Source of the DNA: Alphaproteobacteria bacterium
Lineage (GTDB): Bacteria; Pseudomonadota; Alphaproteobacteria; JAGOMX01
Length of the DNA stretch: 64,000 nt
NCBI GenBank assembly: GCA_017993335.1
Contig: JAGOMX010000004.1
Coordinates: forward strand, 1,185 to 65,184
Reading direction: 5' to 3'
Notes under the pieces: generated by a model
The model's input: the letters and a program-made list of their open reading frames with translations, nothing else
Told to the model about the DNA's origin: nothing
Databases searched by the model: none
Shown: positions 323 to 20,453 of the stretch, piece after piece
Layout of the letters: every line of letters starts with the position of its first letter
Numbering within the stretch: position 1 is the first letter of the stretch
Position numbers and translations under genes: made by a program

Positions 323-3004
323 TTACGCAATAAGCTTGCGTAAAACATAATGCAAAATACCGCCGTGCATGTAGTAATCTACCTCGTCGGCCGTATCCAG
401 TCTGGATTGCAACTGGATGGTTTTTTTGTTCCCATCTGCATAAGTAATTTGGCAATCCACAAGCATACCCGGGGATAAGGTTTTGTCTAATCCCGTGATG
501 TCATAAGTTTCGTCGCCAGTTAAATTGAGGCTCAGGCGATTATTTCCCGACGTAAAGACAAAGGGCAGCACGCCCATGCCAATCAGATTCGAGCGATGAA
601 TCCTTTCAAAGCTTTCCGCAATAACCGCTTGAACGCCCAATAACCTGGTGCCTTTGGCGGCCCAATCTCGGGAAGATCCTGTGCCGTACTCTTTTCCCGC
701 AATAATAATTAACGGGGTGTCTTGTTGTTGATAGAGTATCGAGGCGTCATATATGGACATGGCCGTATCCGTGGGCACGTGTTTGGTTACCCCACCAGAT
801 GTGCCAGGAACCATTTCGTTCTTTAGGCGTATATTGGCAAAGGTACCACGCATCATGACTTCATGGTTGCCACGGCGAGATCCGTAAGAGTTGAACTCGC
901 TAACCGGAACACCTTTTTCCTTTAAGTAGATGCCGGCTGGACTGCTTTCCTTAATGGATCCTGCTGGCGAGATGTGATCGGTTGTTACGCTGTCACCTAG
1001 GATGGCCAGGGTCCTGGCACCTTGAATATTTGAAATCTTTTCTGGATTCAGATTCATGTTCGCAAAATATGGCGGATGCTTAACATATGTGCTGTCTGGC
1101 GTCCAGTCATAGGTTACGCTCTGAGAGTCCGATAGATTTTGCCATAGCTCATCTCCTTTAAAGACGTCACCATAACGCTTCATAAACATTTCAGGCGTCA
1201 GGTTTTTCGCAACGCAAGCCAATATATCCGCATTGCTCGGCCATATATCCTTTAAAAATACATCGTTGCCGTTTTGATCTTGTCCCAGAGGATCCTTGTA
1301 GAGGTCAACTTTTAACGAACCGGCCAGAGCATAGGCGACCACTAACAGGGGGGAGGCTAAGTAATTTAGCTTGACCTGTGGATGGATGCGTCCTTCAAAG
1401 TTACGGTTGCCAGATAGAACACCAGAAACCGTTAAATCATTATGCTCAATGGCTTTGGCAATCGGATCCGGCAAGGGGCCTGAATTTCCGATACAAGTTG
1501 TGCAACCATAGCCAACCAAATTAAAGCCCATGGCGTCTAAGTCATCGGTTAATTCAGCTTTATTCAGATAATCCGTCACCACTTGGGATCCCGGTGCCAG
1601 AGATGTCTTCACCCATGGCTTTGTTTTAAGACCCTTGTTCCGGGCGTTTCTAGCCAAAAGGCCTGCGCCGAGCATGACAGAGGGGTTCGAGGTGTTGGTG
1701 CAGCTGGTGATGGCTGCAATGACCACATCCCCATCCTGAAGGGTAAAGTTTTGACCGTTATAATGAACGGAGGCTGATGTGCTCTTTGTGCTGTCTTCTT
1801 TAGATAAAGAATCGTGCACCGATTGAACGGCTTCCGACAATTTAATTTTATCCTGCGGGCGTTTAGGTCCGGCAAGGCTGGGTTCTACTTCAGACAAATC
1901 TAGCGAGAGTGTATCCGTAAAGATAGGATCCGGCGTCTGCGCTGTGCGCCACATGTTTTGTTCCTTGGCATACGCCTCAACCAATTGCACAACGTTTTCA
2001 TCGCGACCCGTGAATCTTAAATAACGTAAAGTTTCGTTATCGGCGGGGAAGAATCCACACGTTGCGCCGTATTCAGGAGCCATGTTAGATATCGTTGCTC
2101 TGTCCGCAATGGTTAAATGATCCAAGCCTGGGCCATAGAATTCAACGAATTTGCCGACGACGCCTTTTTTGCGAAGCATCTCGGTGACGGTTAAGACCAT
2201 ATCTGTGGCGGTTGTACCTTCTTTCAAGGCGCCTGTGATTTTAAAACCGATAACTTCTGGGATGAGCATAGAAATGGGTTGGCCAAGCATAACGGCTTCT
2301 GCCTCGATGCCGCCCACGCCCCAGCCGAGAATGGCTAGCCCGTTAATCATTGTGGTATGCGAATCTGTTCCCACCAACGAGTCAGGGTAGGCATAATTTT
2401 GTCCGTCTTGTTCTCTTTGCCAGACCACTTGACCTAGATATTCCAGGTTAACCTGATGGCAAATGCCGGTGCCGGGCGGAACAACGCGGAAGTTCTCAAA
2501 GGATTGTTGCCCCCAACGCAGGAAAGCGTAACGTTCTTTATTCCGTTCGTACTCTAGCTCTACGTTATCCTGAAAAGACTGATCGCTGGCAAAATGATCG
2601 ACCATGACCGAGTGATCAATTACCAAATCAACAGGAGATAAGGGATTGATTTGATCTGGATGACCGCCCAGTTTTTTAATAGCATCACGCATCGCGGCGA
2701 GGTCAACCACCGCGGGCACACCGGTAAAGTCTTGCATCAAAACGCGGGACGGACTGAAAGCGATTTCGCGGTTGCTAGTTTTTGTTTTTTGCCAATCAAT
2801 TACGGCTTGAATATCCTCAATTGTAACGGTTTTACCGTCTTCATAACGAAGTAAATTTTCCAAAAGAACACGTAAGGAAAAAGGGAGTTTTTCTATAGAA
2901 CCTAGTTGCTTTTCAACCTCATTCAAGCTGAAATATTGAAACTCTTTACCATTGACCTTCATGGATTTGCGTGTTTTAAGGTGATCTTTTCCGAATCTCG
3001 ACAT
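323..3004 (-). CDS. acnA: aconitate hydratase A
   Basis: 893-aa ORF with aconitase family hallmarks (MSRFGKDHLKT...FSLRVLLENLLR..., Cys-containing cluster-ligand regions). Typical length for AcnA. Confidence 0.9.
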   Translation of the reverse strand: MSRFGKDHLKTRKSMKVNGKEFQYFSLNEVEKQLGSIEKLPFSLRVLLENLLRYEDGKTVTIEDIQAVIDWQKTKTSNREIAFSPSRVLMQDFTGVPAVVDLAAMRDAIKKLGGHPDQINPLSPVDLVIDHSVMVDHFASDQSFQDNVELEYERNKERYAFLRWGQQSFENFRVVPPGTGICHQVNLEYLGQVVWQREQDGQNYAYPDSLVGTDSHTTMINGLAILGWGVGGIEAEAVMLGQPISMLIPEVIGFKITGALKEGTTATDMVLTVTEMLRKKGVVGKFVEFYGPGLDHLTIADRATISNMAPEYGATCGFFPADNETLRYLRFTGRDENVVQLVEAYAKEQNMWRTAQTPDPIFTDTLSLDLSEVEPSLAGPKRPQDKIKLSEAVQSVHDSLSKEDSTKSTSASVHYNGQNFTLQDGDVVIAAITSCTNTSNPSVMLGAGLLARNARNKGLKTKPWVKTSLAPGSQVVTDYLNKAELTDDLDAMGFNLVGYGCTTCIGNSGPLPDPIAKAIEHNDLTVSGVLSGNRNFEGRIHPQVKLNYLASPLLVVAYALAGSLKVDLYKDPLGQDQNGNDVFLKDIWPSNADILACVAKNLTPEMFMKRYGDVFKGDELWQNLSDSQSVTYDWTPDSTYVKHPPYFANMNLNPEKISNIQGARTLAILGDSVTTDHISPAGSIKESSPAGIYLKEKGVPVSEFNSYGSRRGNHEVMMRGTFANIRLKNEMVPGTSGGVTKHVPTDTAMSIYDASILYQQQDTPLIIIAGKEYGTGSSRDWAAKGTRLLGVQAVIAESFERIHRSNLIGMGVLPFVFTSGNNRLSLNLTGDETYDITGLDKTLSPGMLVDCQITYADGNKKTIQLQSRLDTADEVDYYMHGGILHYVLRKLIA

Positions 3005-3217: not shown

Positions 3218-3302
3218 GCGGGCGTGGTGAAATTGGTAGACACGCAAGATTTAGGTTCTTGTGGCTTAGGCTGTGGGGGTTCAAGTCCCTTCGCCCGCAC
3301 CA
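3218..3302 (+). tRNA. tRNA-Leu (anticodon UAG), type II with long variable arm, CCA encoded
   Basis: Acceptor stem GCGGGCG/CGCCCGC. Anticodon stem CAAGA/TCTTG with loop TTTAGGT, giving anticodon TAG. Long variable arm. T-arm GGGGGTTCAAGTCCC. Discriminator A followed by CCA. Confidence 0.85.
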
Positions 3303-3336: not shown

Positions 3337-4680
3337 ATGAAAGTCCTCACGGAATCATCCAAAGATTTACGATATGAATTTAAGATTGAAATAGCTTCTC
3401 AAGATATTGAGGCTGAGGTTGAACAATCCCTTATTAAATACGGAAAGACGGCGAAGTTGCCAGGCTTTAGACCTGGGAAGATTCCTCTTTCTGTGCTGCG
3501 TCAAAAATTTGATGAAGGGGCACGTCAGGATGCGATTAATGCGGCTGTTAAACAGTCTGTGGGTGAAGTGCTGAAAGAAAAATCATTACAGCCCGCTTCT
3601 AGTCCTAAGATTGAGTTATCTACCTATAATAAAGGGGATGACCTGGTCTATACGATGGAAATTGAAGTGTTGCCATCCTTTGAGATTCAGGATTACACCG
3701 GTATTAAGGTCACAAAATTGGCTGTTAAATTGACAGACAAGGATGTGGACGATCATTTGATTAAATTGCTAGAGCATCAAAAGCGGACTGTTAAAGTTGA
3801 GGCGGATCGCAAATCGCAAAAAGGTGATACGGTTGTTATTGATGCGACGGCTTCTAATCCTGATTTTGATGCCAGTGAACAGGGCTTTGAGTCTTTTCAT
3901 TTGTTGTTAGGCAATAATCATCTGGAAACCTTTGATGAGAAGTTGGTCGGAAAAAAAGTTGGCGATGTGGTGGATATTGAATTTACCCTGCCGGAAAATT
4001 TCCCTAACAAGCCGTTTGCGGGCAAGACTTTAAATTATCACACAACCATTAAAGAAATTCGTGAGCCAATTAAGCCAGAAATTACGGAAGAGATTGCGAA
4101 GGAATTTGGGTTTGAGAATTTAGAAGCCTTGCGTAAAGAGGCTCGCGATCAATTGCAGCAATCCACAACGCGGCCTTCCTTCTTATATGCGAAGCGTCAA
4201 ATCTTGGATAGCTTATCCAAGCAATATAGCTTCCAATTGCCGCAGACCTTGTTAGACCATGAGTTTAAGGCGATTTGGGAAGATGTCGAAGCGGAAATGA
4301 AGCATGAGACGGAAACAGAAGGCAAACCTCAGCCTTCGGACAAAGAAATCGAAGCCATGAAAAAGAAATACTTAAATCTGGCTGAGCGTCGTGTTCGTTT
4401 AGGTCTTGTTTTGTCTGAAATTTCTAAAAAGCATGAAATTTCCGTGCCAAAAGAAAAAATTGCACAGGCTGTAATGCAGGCTGCAAAGCAGCACAAGGGA
4501 TACGAGAAAGAGGCTTTTGAGTACTACTTTAAAAACCCAGAAGCCAATGCGCAAATACGTGCGCCTTTGTTGGAAGACGAAGTTATGCATTTCTTGTTGG
4601 ATAAACTAAAAACAACAGAAAAAGAGCTAGACCTAGACGCCTTTAAAAAGGAACTAGAAACGCTTTCAGACGAAGGTTAA
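3337..4680 (+). CDS. tig: trigger factor (ribosome-associated chaperone / PPIase)
   Basis: ATG at 3337 is preceded by AGGAAGG. The ORF track begins upstream at 3166, overlapping the tRNA, which is unlikely. 447 aa with the trigger factor N-terminus MKVLTESSKDLRYEFKIEI...GFRPGKIP. Confidence 0.9.
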   Translation: MKVLTESSKDLRYEFKIEIASQDIEAEVEQSLIKYGKTAKLPGFRPGKIPLSVLRQKFDEGARQDAINAAVKQSVGEVLKEKSLQPASSPKIELSTYNKGDDLVYTMEIEVLPSFEIQDYTGIKVTKLAVKLTDKDVDDHLIKLLEHQKRTVKVEADRKSQKGDTVVIDATASNPDFDASEQGFESFHLLLGNNHLETFDEKLVGKKVGDVVDIEFTLPENFPNKPFAGKTLNYHTTIKEIREPIKPEITEEIAKEFGFENLEALRKEARDQLQQSTTRPSFLYAKRQILDSLSKQYSFQLPQTLLDHEFKAIWEDVEAEMKHETETEGKPQPSDKEIEAMKKKYLNLAERRVRLGLVLSEISKKHEISVPKEKIAQAVMQAAKQHKGYEKEAFEYYFKNPEANAQIRAPLLEDEVMHFLLDKLKTTEKELDLDAFKKELETLSDEG

Positions 4681-5057
4681 GAGATTCTCAAAACTCGATG
4701 AAGCTCTTGGATTCGCCTCTCCCCTTTGTGGGAGAGGCCGTCCGCAGGGCGGGTTCGGCCGTAAGGCCAGGTGGGTTTTCAGTCTCTCACCCTTTCGCTT
4801 TCCTACGGGGCTCTCCCACAAGGGGGGGGATGAAGTCAGGGTCGCCCATGAAAAAACATATCACCAGAACCTGTCCAACTAATTCCAGAAAACAACTGAT
4901 ACCATTTACCCTAACAGGGCCTACGCATGAAAAATTAAAGAGAGGAAGATCCATCCACACCTGTCACACCTGCCTTCGCAGGTATGACAGGTACTTGTAA
5001 CTGTTTTGTGCAATTTTCATGCGCAGGTCCTGTTTACCCTAAATAAACATCATACCA

Positions 5058-5377
5058 CCCCGTCATGCTGAGCGCGGCTCCGCGCAAGCGGAGTTAGCGA
5101 AGCATCCAGGACTATAAGTGCCGCGATGGCGGCTCTTTATAATCTATATAGAGCCAGAGGCCATTTCAAAACTGGCTTTTTTGGAGGGATTTATAGGAAA
5201 GGTGAGAACCGGAGCGCAGCGTACCTCTTCGTACGTGAGCACCGGGAGCGGAACCTTGACGACGAAATCACCCAAAAAAGACGTTTTGAAATGGCCTCAG
5301 CCACTAAAGTGGCACTTGTGTGCCTGGATCCTTCTCTCACTCAGCTAACGCTGAGCTTCGATCAGGATGACGGGGGT
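5058..5377 (+). repeat. P1-family palindromic element (about 173 bp native), copy P1a, interrupted by a 142-bp MITE insertion
   Basis: cccgtcatgctgagcgcggctccgcgcaagcggagttagcgaagcatccaggactataagtgccgcga...gacggggg. Collinear with the copy at 7758-7928 except for the inserted 142 bp plus 5 bp. Confidence 0.65.
5157..5298 (+). mobile_element. MITE-like non-autonomous element: 142 bp, 16-bp terminal inverted repeats GAGGCCATTTCAAAAC, 5-bp target-site duplication AGCCA
   Basis: The ends gaggccatttcaaaac ... gttttgaaatggcctc are perfect reverse complements. They are flanked by AGCCA (5152-5156) and AGCCA (5299-5303). The uninterrupted site gagccactaaag exists in the paralogous repeat at about 7848. 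A second copy is at 54547-54688 in reverse orientation. Confidence 0.7.
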
Positions 5378-5613
5378 TATGATACTTATTTATGATAAAC
5401 GGTATCAGTTATTTCATGGGATTGGTATGACAGGTGTGGGTGGTCGCTCCTCTCTTAAATTTTTCATGCGTATGTCCTGTATTTTTCGTAAAAAAGCTTG
5501 AATAATTGTATGCGACATCCTATGTGTGATAGAGATGAGCTTTTCCATGTCTAACAGTTAGCAAGGTTAAGGCCGATAATTTTTGTCAATTGTTAAGATA
5601 GAAAGTAATTGTT

Positions 5614-7644
5614 ATGGTGGTTTCTTATAAAAATTTGAGCACAGCGATGCTTTCCGTATTGTTGTTAACGTCTCCATCCTTTGGATCGGCGGAGGGTAGT
5701 GAACCTGACTTGAAAAAGGCGAGGGTTTCTCCTGGTTCGGATGATTTTGATTGGATGTCTTTGGTTGAGGTAAAAAAAGAACCAACCGATGAAAGGCGTG
5801 ATGCGGGTGTTGACCTGTTTTTGCTGACTCATGAGGGGATTAAAAATAATTTAAGACGAATTAATCCGGTTGATCCGGTTTTAAAGAGAAAACCAACGGC
5901 GAATTGCTTGCTTTGTTGTGTTTCGTTTTTGAATTGGGTTAAGACGGGTGTATTGACGCCGGCTCCGGCGGTGACTCCGGATAAACCCAATATTTTGATT
6001 CGCCCGAAAAATGCCGTGCTTTTAGATCAAGATGCGGCAAAAGCCATTCCTGGCCATGCGGTGGAAATTATTATTGAAGATGTGCAAGAAAAAACAGTGG
6101 CAGATCTAGATGTTATCGCTGTGGTAGAGCGAGATGGCCGCAAAATAATTTCGTTTGATCCTTGCGCGATGTCTGATTTAGAAAAGACTCTAGCGGATTT
6201 GCATTTGCATCCGGTTCGCGGCGGGGATTGTGCTTCAGGTCTTATGAGCCTGGGGTATAAGCCTGAATACATGGACAAGGTCGTTACGGAGGCTGGCATT
6301 ACCGGGCACTTTCTGAATTTTTATATGTATAGCGATGCTTCGGGATTCAGAAAAACATACATTGTGGATCCGCAGACTTCGGAAATCACGACCTTGGCAA
6401 ATTTCATAAAAAAAGAATCGAAGTATGATTTAGATACCGTGTACCTATGGTGGGATAGTACGAAAAAAGCCTGGGCTGAGCCTATTTCTTACGTCAAAAA
6501 AGAACCGGTCGCAGCAGAGGTTCCAGAAGATATTCTAACGGATGCCGATCCCAATCCCAGAAAAAGATCCGCAGAAATACCCCTGGAAGAATTGCAAAGC
6601 AATGACGCTCAAAAAAAACCTGCCATAGATGATTTTGAAGAGAACGATCGTATACTTGCGACATTTGCATGGAAAGATAAAGATAATCTTCTAGGGGATC
6701 TAGATCGTTTCTTAACCCAGGCGTTTAATCTGAATCAGCAGCAACAGTCTTTTTGGGTCATGGATATGTCCTTAAAAGGCAGTATCTACGCACAATCGAT
6801 ACTAAGCTGGATGTATTTTTATGGAAAAATATCTGGTGCTAGTGATTATACTTCCGCAGTATTTTATGCAAGAAAATCCGCCGATCAGGGGTATGCTCCA
6901 GCGCAATGTGGTTTGGGGTTTTTATATTCAAACGGCCATGTAGACGGCCAAGTGAATGGGGTCGAGGCTTTCAATTGGTATAAAAAAGCCGCCGATCAGG
7001 GGTATGCTCCAGCGCAATGTGGTTTGGGGTTTTTATATTCAAACGGCCATGTAGACGGCCAAGTGAATGGGGTCGAGGCTTTCAATTGGTATAAAAAATC
7101 CGCCGATCAGGGATATGCTACAGCGCAATGTAATTTGGGGAGGTTATATGCAAACGGCCATGTAGACGGCCACGTGAATGGGGTCGAGGCTTTCAAATGG
7201 TACAAAAAAGCCGCCGATCAGGGGCATGTTGCAGCGCAATATGGTTTGGGGTTTTTATATTCAAACGGCCATGTAGATGGCCAAGTGAATTGGGTTGAAG
7301 CTTTCAATTGGTACAAAAAAGCCGCCGATCAGGGGCATGCTACAGCGCAATATAGTTTGGGGGTTTTATATGCAAAAGGCCATGTGGACGGCCAAGTGAA
7401 TAGGGTCGAGGCTTTCAAATGGTGCAAAAAAGCTGCAGATCAAAATTATGCTGTCGCACAAGATGCTCTGGGGGATATATATGCCAATGGTTATCTTGGT
7501 AAAAAAAATTTAGAAGAGGCTTTAAAATGGTACAACAAAGCTTATTTACAGCAGAGAGATTTAGTTGAGCAAAAAATAATTGAGGTTAGGAAACAGATGG
7601 GGAAAATAAGGGCTTATAACTTGCTATTTCGCAATTCTCTCTGA
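5614..7644 (+). CDS. Sel1-like repeat (SLR) protein with N-terminal signal peptide and a unique N-terminal domain of about 400 aa; effector-like
   Basis: Signal peptide MVVSYKNLSTAMLSVLLLTSPSFGSA. Six tandem 37-aa repeats AADQGYAPAQCGLGFLYSNGHVDGQVNGVEAFNWYKK fit the Sel1 consensus (A..G...A...LG..Y..G.GV..d...A..WY.KAA). Confidence 0.85.
   Translation: MVVSYKNLSTAMLSVLLLTSPSFGSAEGSEPDLKKARVSPGSDDFDWMSLVEVKKEPTDERRDAGVDLFLLTHEGIKNNLRRINPVDPVLKRKPTANCLLCCVSFLNWVKTGVLTPAPAVTPDKPNILIRPKNAVLLDQDAAKAIPGHAVEIIIEDVQEKTVADLDVIAVVERDGRKIISFDPCAMSDLEKTLADLHLHPVRGGDCASGLMSLGYKPEYMDKVVTEAGITGHFLNFYMYSDASGFRKTYIVDPQTSEITTLANFIKKESKYDLDTVYLWWDSTKKAWAEPISYVKKEPVAAEVPEDILTDADPNPRKRSAEIPLEELQSNDAQKKPAIDDFEENDRILATFAWKDKDNLLGDLDRFLTQAFNLNQQQQSFWVMDMSLKGSIYAQSILSWMYFYGKISGASDYTSAVFYARKSADQGYAPAQCGLGFLYSNGHVDGQVNGVEAFNWYKKAADQGYAPAQCGLGFLYSNGHVDGQVNGVEAFNWYKKSADQGYATAQCNLGRLYANGHVDGHVNGVEAFKWYKKAADQGHVAAQYGLGFLYSNGHVDGQVNWVEAFNWYKKAADQGHATAQYSLGVLYAKGHVDGQVNRVEAFKWCKKAADQNYAVAQDALGDIYANGYLGKKNLEEALKWYNKAYLQQRDLVEQKIIEVRKQMGKIRAYNLLFRNSL
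6880..7545 (+). repeat. Six tandem 111-bp coding repeats (Sel1 units); the first two are near-identical at the nucleotide level
   Basis: Units start at about 6880, 6991, 7102, 7213, 7324 and 7435. Units 1 and 2 differ by about 1 nt. Confidence 0.8.
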
Positions 7645-7757
7645 GGACGAAGTTTGTTCCCTGGCGGAGGGGTTACAAATGAGGGTTGAGGAGGTTTAAG
7701 GCAGTCTCTATTGGTATGTTTATGCCGTTTACCCTAAACTAAGTATTATTACCCACT

Positions 7758-7928
7758 CCCGTCATGCTGAGCGCGGCTCCGCGCAAGCGGAGTTAGCGAA
7801 GCATCCAGGACTATAAGTGCCGCGAAAGCGGCTCTTTATAATCTATATAGAGCCACTAAAGTGGCACTTGTGTGCCTGGATCTTTCGCTTACTCCGCTGA
7901 CGCGGAGCTGCGTTCAAAATGACGGGGG
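7758..7928 (+). repeat. P1-family palindromic element, copy P1b (intact, 171 bp)
   Basis: The left half cccgtcatgctgagcgcggctccgcgcaagcggagttagcgaag is the approximate reverse complement of the right half ctttcgcttactccgctgacgcggagctgcgttcaaaatgacggg. It contains the intact MITE target sequence gagccactaaagtggcac. Confidence 0.65.
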
Positions 7929-7949
7929 TATGATGCTTAATTTATTGTA

Positions 7950-18955: not shown

Positions 18956-18967
18956 TGCCATATTTAA

Positions 18968-19080
18968 TACCAATTCCATAAAATAACTGATAAATCTTAC
19001 CCTCGCTGCCTGCGCAGGTATGACAGGCAATGGTTGAGGAGATTCAAGACAGCCTCTATCTGTATGCTTATACTAATTCC
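18968..19080 (+). repeat. Family-A element, internally deleted copy A2
   Basis: ccaattccataaaataactgataaatcttaccctcg fused to ctgcctgcgcaggtatgacaggcaatggttgaggagattcaagacagcctctat. Lies immediately 3' of tatD. Confidence 0.6.
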
Positions 19081-19121: not shown

Positions 19122-20078
19122 TTATGATTTTGGTTCAAAACAAAAACGACATTTCATCATAAGAAGAATCCCCCCCGCCTGCCTCATCGGCAACTGCCTC
19201 CAACCGGTACCTGCATCCGGATGCCGCCGCACTTTTTTATGCTCATATATATTGAAAATAGGGGTTTCGTTCATCTCGCCAAATCTCAAGATCGTATAAT
19301 TGAACCCCCAGGTGGTAATATCATCCCCACCATACCTACTAAGCATACAAACCGCCTTCTGCGATAAATCTGCTTCGGAGACGTTCCGTAGAAATGCAGG
19401 ATGGGTGGATATCTGCTCAGCAATACGTTTCAATTCACTCAACGTCAGAAGAAGAAGAATAGTTTTTTCAGTATTGGGATAAACCGGATTTAGAAATTTT
19501 TCTGTCATCCTCGTGACACACAGATCTGAAGGGATAGTCTTTGGCAGAATGAGCTCACCATTGGTCGTGTCCATATACATATCTGATAATTGGACATCAA
19601 TTACAGTTAAGCCTCCAGGTTCATAGCGGAAAATGCCGTTTTTTAGGGTTCTCTCATCCTGCTCCATCATTCGCAGCCTCAGATATGGCTCCGGGCTTTC
19701 CGGGGGTATAGGCCTACCAAATTTTATAGCTGGGAGAATAATTTCCCTTACATAATTAAGATTATCGGAGCCTAAGAAAAAGCGACACCAAGATTTACAA
19801 ACCAAGGCATAATCTGAGGTCAGTTTTTGCGCCAAAAATCGATTGGCAATAGTTTTTTTTATGTCCAACGGTATTCCAGGAAAAAATTCTTCATGCAAAA
19901 TGCGTGCAGATGAAGATTCTTCCGGTACCTCCATGTTAGCCAAAGCGAGGCGATGAACGGATGGAGACTCAAGTTCCAGAGGGGGCAGTCCATCTTCACT
20001 TGCAAGTACATTAAAATACCCTGCACTTAAGATCATGAGACTTGTGATTATCGCTAATTTCTTTGTAAACTTAATCAT
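19122..20078 (-). CDS. secreted hypothetical protein with an F-box-like motif
   Basis: Signal peptide MIKFTKKLAIITSLMILSAGYFNVLA. Residues about 68-100, IPLDIKKTIANRFLAQKLTSDYALVCKSWCRFF, match the F-box consensus LPxEIlxxIlxxLxxxxLxxxxxVCKxWxxl in spacing and key residues. Confidence 0.6.
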   Translation of the reverse strand: MIKFTKKLAIITSLMILSAGYFNVLASEDGLPPLELESPSVHRLALANMEVPEESSSARILHEEFFPGIPLDIKKTIANRFLAQKLTSDYALVCKSWCRFFLGSDNLNYVREIILPAIKFGRPIPPESPEPYLRLRMMEQDERTLKNGIFRYEPGGLTVIDVQLSDMYMDTTNGELILPKTIPSDLCVTRMTEKFLNPVYPNTEKTILLLLTLSELKRIAEQISTHPAFLRNVSEADLSQKAVCMLSRYGGDDITTWGFNYTILRFGEMNETPIFNIYEHKKVRRHPDAGTGWRQLPMRQAGGILLMMKCRFCFEPKS

Positions 20079-20119: not shown

Positions 20120-20376
20120 GGAATTATACCAGATCCTATAATTAAGTATACAGATAGATGCTGTCTTAAATCTCCTCAACCATCGTCTGTCATACCTGCG
20201 CAGGCAGGTATCCAGCGCAACATGTGCCTCGAAGAGGCTCCATATTTCCTTGCTTCTGTGGCATTGAAATAAATGGAGAGCTGCTGTGCAGCACTTTGTT
20301 GTGCTGGATTCCCGCCTTCGCGGGAATGACAGGCGGCGAGGGTAAGATTTATCCGTTATTTTATGGAATTGGTATT
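20120..20376 (-). repeat. Family-A element, copy A3, in inverse orientation to A1
   Basis: Its reverse complement aligns with 117-321 across the full length, including both hairpin modules. Confidence 0.7.
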
Positions 20377-20418
20377 AGTTGAATAGAGGAATAGTGTGAA
20401 CTATTCCTCTATTCAACT
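20377..20418. repeat. perfect 18-bp-stem hairpin (agttgaatagaggaatag / ctattcctctattcaact) with a 6-nt loop
   Basis: Exact reverse complementarity read from the sequence. Lies directly next to the A3 element. Confidence 0.8.
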
Positions 20419-20453
20419 AATGTTCCTTTATGGTGTGCAGGGGTAACTAGATC

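Follow-up and report, generated by a model that had tools for sequence, protein, structure and literature searches.

Intergenic mosaic elements have been described as NIMEs in Neisseria, BIMEs in Escherichia coli and RIMEs in rhizobia, and insertion sequences (IS) of the ISAs1 family, as catalogued in ISfinder, have CAGGG ends and 8-10-bp duplications. The GIY-YIG nuclease SsnA binds the Neisseria Transformation Sequence (NTS) and cuts single-stranded DNA upstream of it (Chenal et al. 2025, PMC11893778), and generalised Ssn-related motifs (SRM), which are plentiful in symbionts, flank ssn genes across many phyla (PMC11893778). A Neisseria repeat with the same core (ATTCCCGCGCAGGCGGGAATC) has been treated as a REPIN moved by a Group 2 RAYT (Bertels & Rainey, bioRxiv 10.1101/2021.07.10.451892). 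In this study, we analysed a 64-kb stretch of DNA (hereafter the window) from an uncultured alphaproteobacterium and, within it, the 933-bp gap (4681-5613) between the stop codon of tig, encoding trigger factor, and a Sel1-repeat gene. Loci from other genomes and metagenomes that were compared with the window are given L-numbers (L001, L002 and so on).

With a probability of roughly 85%, the tig-Sel1 gap is a stack of non-autonomous mobile elements, with neither a gene nor a known RNA in it. Repeats cover approximately 800 of its 933 bases (4681-5479), and every piece of this part was shown to belong to a repeat family. An earlier reading of the letters alone, referred to below as the original prediction, had described the gap as a non-coding mosaic of several repeat families, with each feature at or within a few bases of where we found it. 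This description was borne out by copy numbers far above those in dinucleotide-preserving shuffles: 4 good copies of the X-type end in the window (0.06 expected), 6 of the Family A arm (0.00 expected) and 5 of the linker accompanying Family A (0.00 expected).

The gap is an ordinary, tidy case of nested colonisation by miniature inverted-repeat transposable elements (MITEs) and REP-like repeats, with families that are new though of known kinds; pile-ups of this sort are usual in symbiont-like bacterial genomes. It resembles NIMEs, BIMEs and RIMEs in that short repeats are chained and nested in one gap beside a host-interaction-type gene, with their modules reshuffled. Unlike NIMEs and BIMEs, two of its modules are demonstrable DDE-type MITEs with target-site duplications.

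Two nested insertions

The original prediction had the gap record successive insertions. Two nested insertions, element X (118 bp) and a 142-bp MITE, were identified, and the perfect target-site duplications together with an uninterrupted paralogous empty site prove that both entered a longer sequence, read here as one element and designated P1-long (Table 1). The empty site is the second copy of the P1 doublet, downstream of the Sel1 gene. There, the 10-mer TTTACCCTAA that flanks X on both sides is single (near 7733-7745), and the AGCCA that flanks the 142-bp MITE occurs once (7851-7855). When X and the 142-bp MITE were deleted, each with one copy of its duplication, a continuous sequence of 368 bp was restored, which aligned without gaps to P1 copy 2 (7727-7945) at both insertion sites.

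The P1 element carrying the MITE was located where it had been predicted, and its core was 98% / 87% identical to copy 2 at 7758-7929. All four arms of the two copies read CGTCAT-hairpin-ATCCAG, with compensatory changes in the stems (CTCCGC/GCGGAG versus CTCAGC/GCTGAG), and the arms of the gap copy are 67 bp apart after removal of the MITE. A related P1-type arm was found at L063:5249-5300. The Sel1 gene is bracketed by the two P1 doublets, which are in direct orientation and whose left parts are 98% identical; this layout recalls the NTS-gene-NTS arrangement near host-interaction genes in Neisseria.

Table 1 Coordinates of the elements in the tig-Sel1 gap and of related features in the window
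Feature	Position	Strand	Remarks
Aconitase gene	323-3004	-	Local gene order
tRNA-Leu	3218-3302		Local gene order
tig (trigger factor)	3337-4680		Upstream neighbour of the 933-bp gap
G-MITE, truncated	4681-4836	+	Aligned over its whole length to 180-190-bp copies from related genomes
Left inner palindrome of G-MITE, CCTCTCCC-CTTTGT-GGGAGAGG	4716-4737	+	Inverted partner at ~4808-4829
P1-long (proposed element), left arm, outer part	4837-4914	+	Degenerate ISAs1-type end 4837-4855; linker AATTCCAGAAAACAACTGATA 4881-4901
Target-site duplication TTTACCCTAA, left copy	4905-4914		Identical 10-mer at 5033-5042
X, ISAs1-derived MITE, 118 bp	4915-5032	+	Ends 4915-4934 and 5013-5032
Palindrome ACCTGTCAC ACCTGC CTTC GCAGGT ATGACAGGT	4959-4992		34 nt, inside X; -14.2 kcal/mol, z = -6.3
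Target-site duplication TTTACCCTAA, right copy	5033-5042		Perfect 10-bp match to left copy
P1-long (proposed element), left arm, inner remainder	5043-5058	+	From inverted-repeat alignment
P1 core doublet	5059-5377	+	Left arm 5061-5109; right arm 5324-5372 (minus); spacer split by 142-bp MITE
Target-site duplication AGCCA, left copy	5152-5156		Repeated at 5299-5303
142-bp MITE	5157-5298	+	28-nt inverted ends GAGGCCATTTCAAAAC...
Target-site duplication AGCCA, right copy	5299-5303		Matches 5152-5156
P1-long (proposed element), right arm	5378-5479	-	Linker 5403-5423; ISAs1-type end 5460-5479, CAGGACATACGCATGAAAAA
AT-rich unique leader of Sel1 gene	5480-5613	+	Repeat-free; one promoter-like site 5551-5580
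Sel1-repeat gene	5614-7644		676 aa, seven Sel1 repeats, Pfam E = 1e-47; downstream neighbour of the gap
P1 copy 2	7727-7945 (core 7758-7929)	+	Downstream of Sel1 gene; without 142-bp insert; empty site for both nested insertions
142-bp MITE, second copy	54547-54688	-	98% identical; own 5-bp duplication ATCAT
Further X-type (ISAs1-type) end	63962-64000	+	Incomplete, at window end

Origin of element X

The short inverted-repeat element of the original prediction corresponds to X, which is bounded by CAGGGCCTACGCATGAAAAA and, on the opposite strand, CAGGACCTGCGCATGAAAAT. Comparison with a full-length 1.19-kb IS of the ISAs1 family (L158:893-2081) gave 20/20 matches for the left end and 17/20 for the right. 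This IS is flanked by the 10-bp duplication GGGGCTTGCA and carries an ORF of 365 aa matching NCBIfam NF033564 "ISAs1 family transposase" (357 bits) as well as Pfam DDE_Tnp_1 and DDE_Tnp_1_assoc. Scanning metagenomes with CAGGGCCTAYGCATGAAAA yielded at least 120 loci and, among the loci listed, at least 18 convergent pairs of ISAs1-type ends 1186-1216 bp apart. The transposases with such ends were diverse (51-100% identical). The same ends also bound non-coding derivatives of 48, 164-172, 214-218, 375 and 385 bp. All of these are flanked by duplications of approximately 10 bp, which were seen in eight MITE derivatives other than X.

These comparisons show X to be an ISAs1-derived MITE: it shares with ISAs1 elements and their MITE derivatives the CAGGG inverted ends, the 10-bp duplication and a place in the 48-385-bp deletion series. 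It differs from the IS in that no transposase and no Pfam match were found in its 118 bp and in that its interior is a collapsed GTCAT hairpin palindrome, not IS sequence. The element folds at z = -6.9. Literature searches for the CAGGG ends of ISAs1 returned nothing useful.

The palindrome inside X reads as two GTCAT halves of a Family A / SRM-type doublet fused to each other. In relatives, ISAs1-type ends surround a complete Family A doublet (L006:19311-19528, L028:6435-6640, L200 and L176). Since these relatives carry the full doublet within the same ends, the Family A piece in X is the normal cargo of this element family in collapsed form; the fragment that had been noted inside the short element is present as the GTCAT/ATGAC palindrome, but it is not the nested insertion it was taken for.

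The 142-bp MITE

The 142-bp element has inverted ends, differing duplications at its two copies, multiple copies and an empty site, as MITEs do, and it folds at z = -9.0. Matches to it in PLSDB involved the core hairpin and not the ends, and matches in IMG/VR to ends of the GAGRCCATTTCAAAAC type were 24 single, partnerless sites that look like chance. A literature search for the MITE core and the end sequences gave nothing relevant.

The core hairpin (5204-5250) was 87-89% identical to unannotated intergenic DNA of plasmids and chromids from Rhizobiales and Sphingomonadales in 29 records, for example a plasmid of Ensifer adhaerens (L230, 601-646). No Rfam match was obtained for the Ensifer locus sharing this core. 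The core was also seen with other flanks in a related metagenome-assembled genome (MAG; L035, L041).

G-MITE and the hairpin at the tig stop codon

Immediately downstream of tig lies a fourth repeat, G-MITE, whose core consists of two inverted arms with 62% GC versus approximately 40% around it. Full copies in related genomes (L084:2069-2248, L084:3560-3748 and L075:4394-4583) are all bounded by GAGACCATTTCAAAAC inverted repeats. In the window copy, the left inverted repeat, GAGATTCTCAAAAC, is decayed and begins with the first base directly after the TAA of tig, and the right inverted repeat has been lost; strain L002 (98.6% identical) reads GAGACCATAAAAAC at the left end. The ends of G-MITE are the same as those of the 142-bp MITE (GAGRCCATTTCAAAAC type, GAGRCC family), and 5-bp duplications across this end family are AGCCA, ATCAT and GGATA.

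The GC-rich hairpin at the tig stop had been listed as a separate feature. It is present, but it is the inner palindrome of G-MITE. A Rho-independent terminator of tig was ruled out for it by that homology and by the missing T-tract: the hairpin is followed by CCGTCCGCAGG, and a terminator scan listed no site there.

The cores and ends of these MITEs occur in other combinations. Ends of the GAGRCCATTTCAAAAC type enclose the G core in relatives (L084:2069-2248) and another core in the window MITE at 5157-5298, and a G-like core was also found inside an ISAs1-type MITE (L192:5676-6060).

Hairpin doublets and the NTS/SRM class

Family A arms read TGTCATTCCCGCG(C/A)AGGCGGGAATCCAGCGCAA (also given as TGTCATTCCCGCG(C/A)AGGCGGGAATCCAG). 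They differ at one position from the NTS of Neisseria (28 nt, CGTCATTCCCGCGMAVGCGGGAATCYRG) and include dRS3 (ATTCCC-N8-GGGAAT). The published patterns (PMC11893778) were applied to the window, allowing NTS at most one mismatch and using HGTCWYN(0-2)YYVSBRHN(0-5)WNVSBRGN(0-2)RNCYNB for SRM. NTS matched two Family A arms, at 162 and 20304, with one mismatch each, and SRM matched at 162-189, 20304-20331 and 54340-54367 (simulated mean 0.26). Family A thus passes elsewhere in the window, and neither pattern had a match inside 4681-5613. The P1 arms have the form of an oriented hairpin with a 5' GTCAT-type head and a 3' RNCYNB tail.

A genome scan with a 32-nt degenerate Family A arm gave at least 102 loci, which included Alphaproteobacteria (two relatives of this MAG among them), Rickettsiales, Planctomycetota, Burkholderiales, Chloroflexota, Nitrospirota, Hydrogenedentota and Patescibacteria. 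The MAG of the window itself was not among the loci listed, most of which were convergent doublets 65-200 bp long. In 202 arms from many phyla, two variable stem positions were paired in 98.5%, with four Watson-Crick pair types each. The flanks of the doublets examined (n = 20) showed extended palindromes and no target duplications.

Searching by tblastn with a GIY-YIG consensus revealed motif-flanked ssn-like genes in L039, L078, L012 and L046 and none in the window; SRM-ssn-SRM units were present in the first three of these loci. The genes lie at L039:7233-7840 (alphaproteobacterial), L078:368-1000 (Hydrogenedentota) and L012:1334-1745 (an Ignavibacteria MAG), and the Ssn-like protein of L039 had no NCBIfam match. 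In the Pirellulaceae MAG OTE_70_metabat_376 (L030, L049, L077, L083, L102 and others), many contigs start or end in a 65-bp motif doublet, so the repeat appears to be abundant there and to break the assembly.

By resemblance, the gap doublets may be assigned to the NTS/SRM (REPIN-like) class, with the P1 arms outside the published pattern. They have in common with it that Family A consists of oriented hairpins with a conserved 5' GTCAT, is intergenic and common in symbiont-like Alphaproteobacteria, and provides the motif flanking ssn genes in some genomes. The differences are that the gap has derivatives only, that the compound hairpin of the P1 arms measures 37 nt, that in X two 5' halves are fused symmetrically and that no ssn gene lies in the window. 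The likeness to REPIN-RAYT systems lies in two inverted hairpin repeats placed close together in intergenic DNA without target duplications; the classic REP head GT[AG]G is replaced here by GTCAT.

Hitch-hiking in ISAs1 MITEs was considered as the main route by which SRM doublets spread and was rejected. An ISAs1-type end was found within 110 bp of 3 of 56 doublets, always on a single side at the threshold applied. Since so few doublets are near such an end, transport inside ISAs1 MITEs would be a minority route.

Coding and RNA potential of the gap

All three ORFs listed in the original prediction exist and are spurious. None of the nine gap ORFs had a Pfam match; two of the three listed were absent from a collection of 15 billion proteins, being uncalled in public annotation, and the third was a singleton cluster from this contig alone. 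These results ruled the ORFs out as genes. The two longest, of 100 and 89 aa, span element junctions and cannot predate the insertions concerned. At the Rfam gathering score, the tRNA was the sole match in the window and the gap had none; below that score, matches in 4500-5800 were at chance level (E>2), which ruled out a known RNA family. The conserved gene or non-coding RNA that might have overturned the non-coding reading was accordingly not found in the gap by Pfam, public annotation or Rfam. Blast matched the remaining, repeat-free part (5480-5613) neither to any other part of the window nor to the compared loci.

Proposed extent of P1-long and alternative explanations

Several points weigh against reading the gap as a pile-up of mobile elements. 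An ISAs1 transposase, Ssn and RAYT were all absent from the 64-kb window (30 ORFs by Pfam; tblastn), and tblastn found no ISAs1 transposase or autonomous copy in the loci from relatives. For the GAGRCC family, no autonomous parent IS with paired GAGRCCATTTCAAAAC ends around a transposase turned up in the 1.4 Mb of compared loci, in PLSDB or in IMG/VR. The P1 arms fail the published SRM pattern, the traits in common being the 5' CGTCAT, the 3' ATCCAG and the hairpin. Support from another assembly (L001) is confined to 4681-4998. Finally, the sequences beside P1-long (GGGATGAAGT versus TATTTTTCGT) form no target duplication, and only 15/19 positions of its left end agree with the ISAs1 consensus; for these two reasons it may consist of two or more separate remnants.

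This last point bears on the arrangement first proposed, in which 4837-4914 and 5378-5479 are independent Family-A and X-type fragments flanking P1. The missing duplication around 4837-5479 is in its favour, as are the degenerate left end with an internal deletion, the lack of such outer arms in P1 copy 2 and the small share of hairpin doublets (3 of 56) bracketed by ISAs1-type ends in other genomes. Nevertheless, an inverted repeat of approximately 170 nt relates the left side (4837-4914 with 5043-5058) to the right side (5378-5479), and both keep the same order of modules: ISAs1-type end, linker, GTCAT arm. Blast matched 4862-4914 to 5442-5390 in inverted orientation, and a 57-nt inverted repeat (84%) relates a segment of the right arm to 4914-4970. 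Intact elements of the same architecture with duplications are present in relatives (L200, L176, L006:19311-19528 and L028), and at the same place after the G core, the related strain L002 has a linker and a Family A (GTCAT) arm together with an intact ISAs1-type end. On account of the inverted sides and the equal module order, 4837-5479 is somewhat more plausibly one long-palindrome element, P1-long, of 368 bp without its inserts, and independent fragments are rather unlikely. The two pieces that had been noted right of P1 do exist, as a linker known beside Family A elsewhere plus GGTATGACAGG (5403-5442) and as a copy of the X-type end (5460-5479), but they are best read together as the right arm of this element. 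Homology of P1-long to the 375-bp ISAs1 MITE (L123) was rejected, the match being confined to the ends. The arrangement in L002 points to turnover at the site; alternatively, it may reflect a repeat-collapsed short-read contig.

A second alternative is that this hairpin-rich DNA is kept for function, in terminating or stabilising the tig transcript and in insulating the Sel1 gene and providing its promoter, by modules exapted in the manner of REP and BIME arrays in E. coli. It is true that tig has no canonical intrinsic terminator and that the first strong hairpins past its stop codon lie in G-MITE, which has been kept in two strains 98.6% identical in the flanking DNA. Moreover, the region 4500-5800 held 4 terminator-like and 5 promoter-like sites versus 1.5 and 1.6, respectively, expected from shuffles. 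Against this, 47-256 bp after tig suffice in relatives that have none of these elements, no T-run follows any tig-end hairpin, and recent neutral insertion would account for the intact duplications of the two youngest inserts and for their near-identical copies elsewhere. We consider retention for function improbable as an explanation of the gap, and exaptation is in any case compatible with an origin from mobile elements.

An assembly artefact, with repeats inducing chimeric joins in this metagenome-assembled contig, is highly improbable: such repeats are what confuses assemblers, and short-read contigs assembled independently for this species stop within the gap (L001 at 4998; L002 approximately 140 bp past the point, after 4826, where it diverges), but chimeric joins do not yield perfect target duplications with precise empty sites, L001 is 100% identical over 4681-4998 including the left junction of X, and the contig passes six other repeat-bearing gaps with normal genes on either side.

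Proposed order of events and possible mechanism

It had been suggested that the order of insertion could be reconstructed from orthologous regions downstream of tig. This comparison was made and failed, the gene order being different in every relative found. The closest relatives had tig proteins 52-72% identical; tig is followed by a different gene in each of L003-L007 (66-70%), where these elements are missing, and the spacing downstream of tig in the relatives fetched was 47-256 bp. Because a different gene follows tig in each relative fetched, the gap lies at a synteny breakpoint.

From the window itself, the following order may be proposed. G-MITE, with GAGRCCATTTCAAAAC-type ends of a family making 5-bp duplications, would have inserted right after the tig stop codon; it appears to be old because it is common to strain L002 and its ends are decayed. 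The P1-long element of approximately 370 bp, or a predecessor, would then have come to abut the G core, with the right end of G-MITE being lost meanwhile. We infer the relative age of these two steps. Two later cut-and-paste insertions into P1-long, X and the 142-bp MITE, would have followed; perfect duplications and near-consensus ends mark these as the youngest, and their mutual order is not readable from sequence. X was presumably mobilised in trans by a DDE transposase of the ISAs1 family making a 10-bp duplication, and the 142-bp MITE by a transposase making 5-bp duplications. The hairpin doublets are probably mobilised or processed in the form of single-stranded hairpins by an enzyme encoded elsewhere, which would be either a HUH transposase of RAYT type or a GIY-YIG nuclease of Ssn type.

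A more speculative idea, which we regard as doubtful, is that the hairpin modules (the GTCAT/SRM doublets, the G core and the CCGG core of the 142-bp MITE) are second-tier parasites that colonise DDE-type MITEs and are spread by them. This would explain why the same inverted ends enclose different cores in different genomes, why the same cores occur within different MITE families and why ISAs1 ends with 10-bp duplications bracket some of the SRM doublets. Were this true, ISAs1 transposition would be a concrete route for the expansion of NTS/SRM repeats in symbiont genomes, and the P1-bracketed Sel1 gene would be an SRM-gene-SRM cassette like those of host-interaction genes in Neisseria.

The gap marks this uncultured alphaproteobacterium as having a genome heavily colonised by small repeats, as in Rickettsia, Wolbachia and Neisseria, and its repeats account for the breaks immediately past tig in short-read assemblies of this species. 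The hairpin of NTS/dRS3 type known from Neisseria recurs with hardly any change in this lineage and in MAGs from many phyla, and some of its copies travel inside ISAs1-type MITEs. In practical terms, three spurious ORFs can be removed from annotation, the GC-rich hairpin is not to be read as the terminator of tig, and the two recent insertions with intact duplications can serve as strain-typing markers.

Other repeats and genes in the window

The trigger factors of this clade (the product of tig and proteins P0001-P0009) had only Trigger_N and Trigger_C in the precomputed Pfam list, and more distant homologues additionally carry the FKBP-type PPIase domain PF00254.

Units made of linker, Family A and a further module, 'M', at 113-350, 18962-19070 and 20126-20377 coincide with departures of the gene order from that of L004. 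L004 has TatD, HipA, aconitase, MFS and tig in one uninterrupted block. The ends of TatD (18955) and aconitase (323) in the window each adjoin these repeats. This suggests repeat-mediated rearrangement at these sites.

An orphan ORF of 318 aa (19122-20078, minus strand) without a Pfam match lies between inverted linker/Family A/M units in a cassette-like layout, the units being complementary over 48 nt at 96% and over 65 nt at 92%. At 20374-20421, two perfectly inverted copies of 22 nt (ATTAGTTGAATAGAGGAATAGT / ACTATTCCTCTATTCAACTAAT), spaced by 4 nt, lie between the rpsD 3' end and a Family A unit. Lastly, an 87-nt direct repeat (92% identical) at 31667-31753 and 34462-34548 lies upstream of two large adjacent ORFs, 32133-34283 and 34741-38232, and its two copies are probably duplicated leader regions of paralogous genes.

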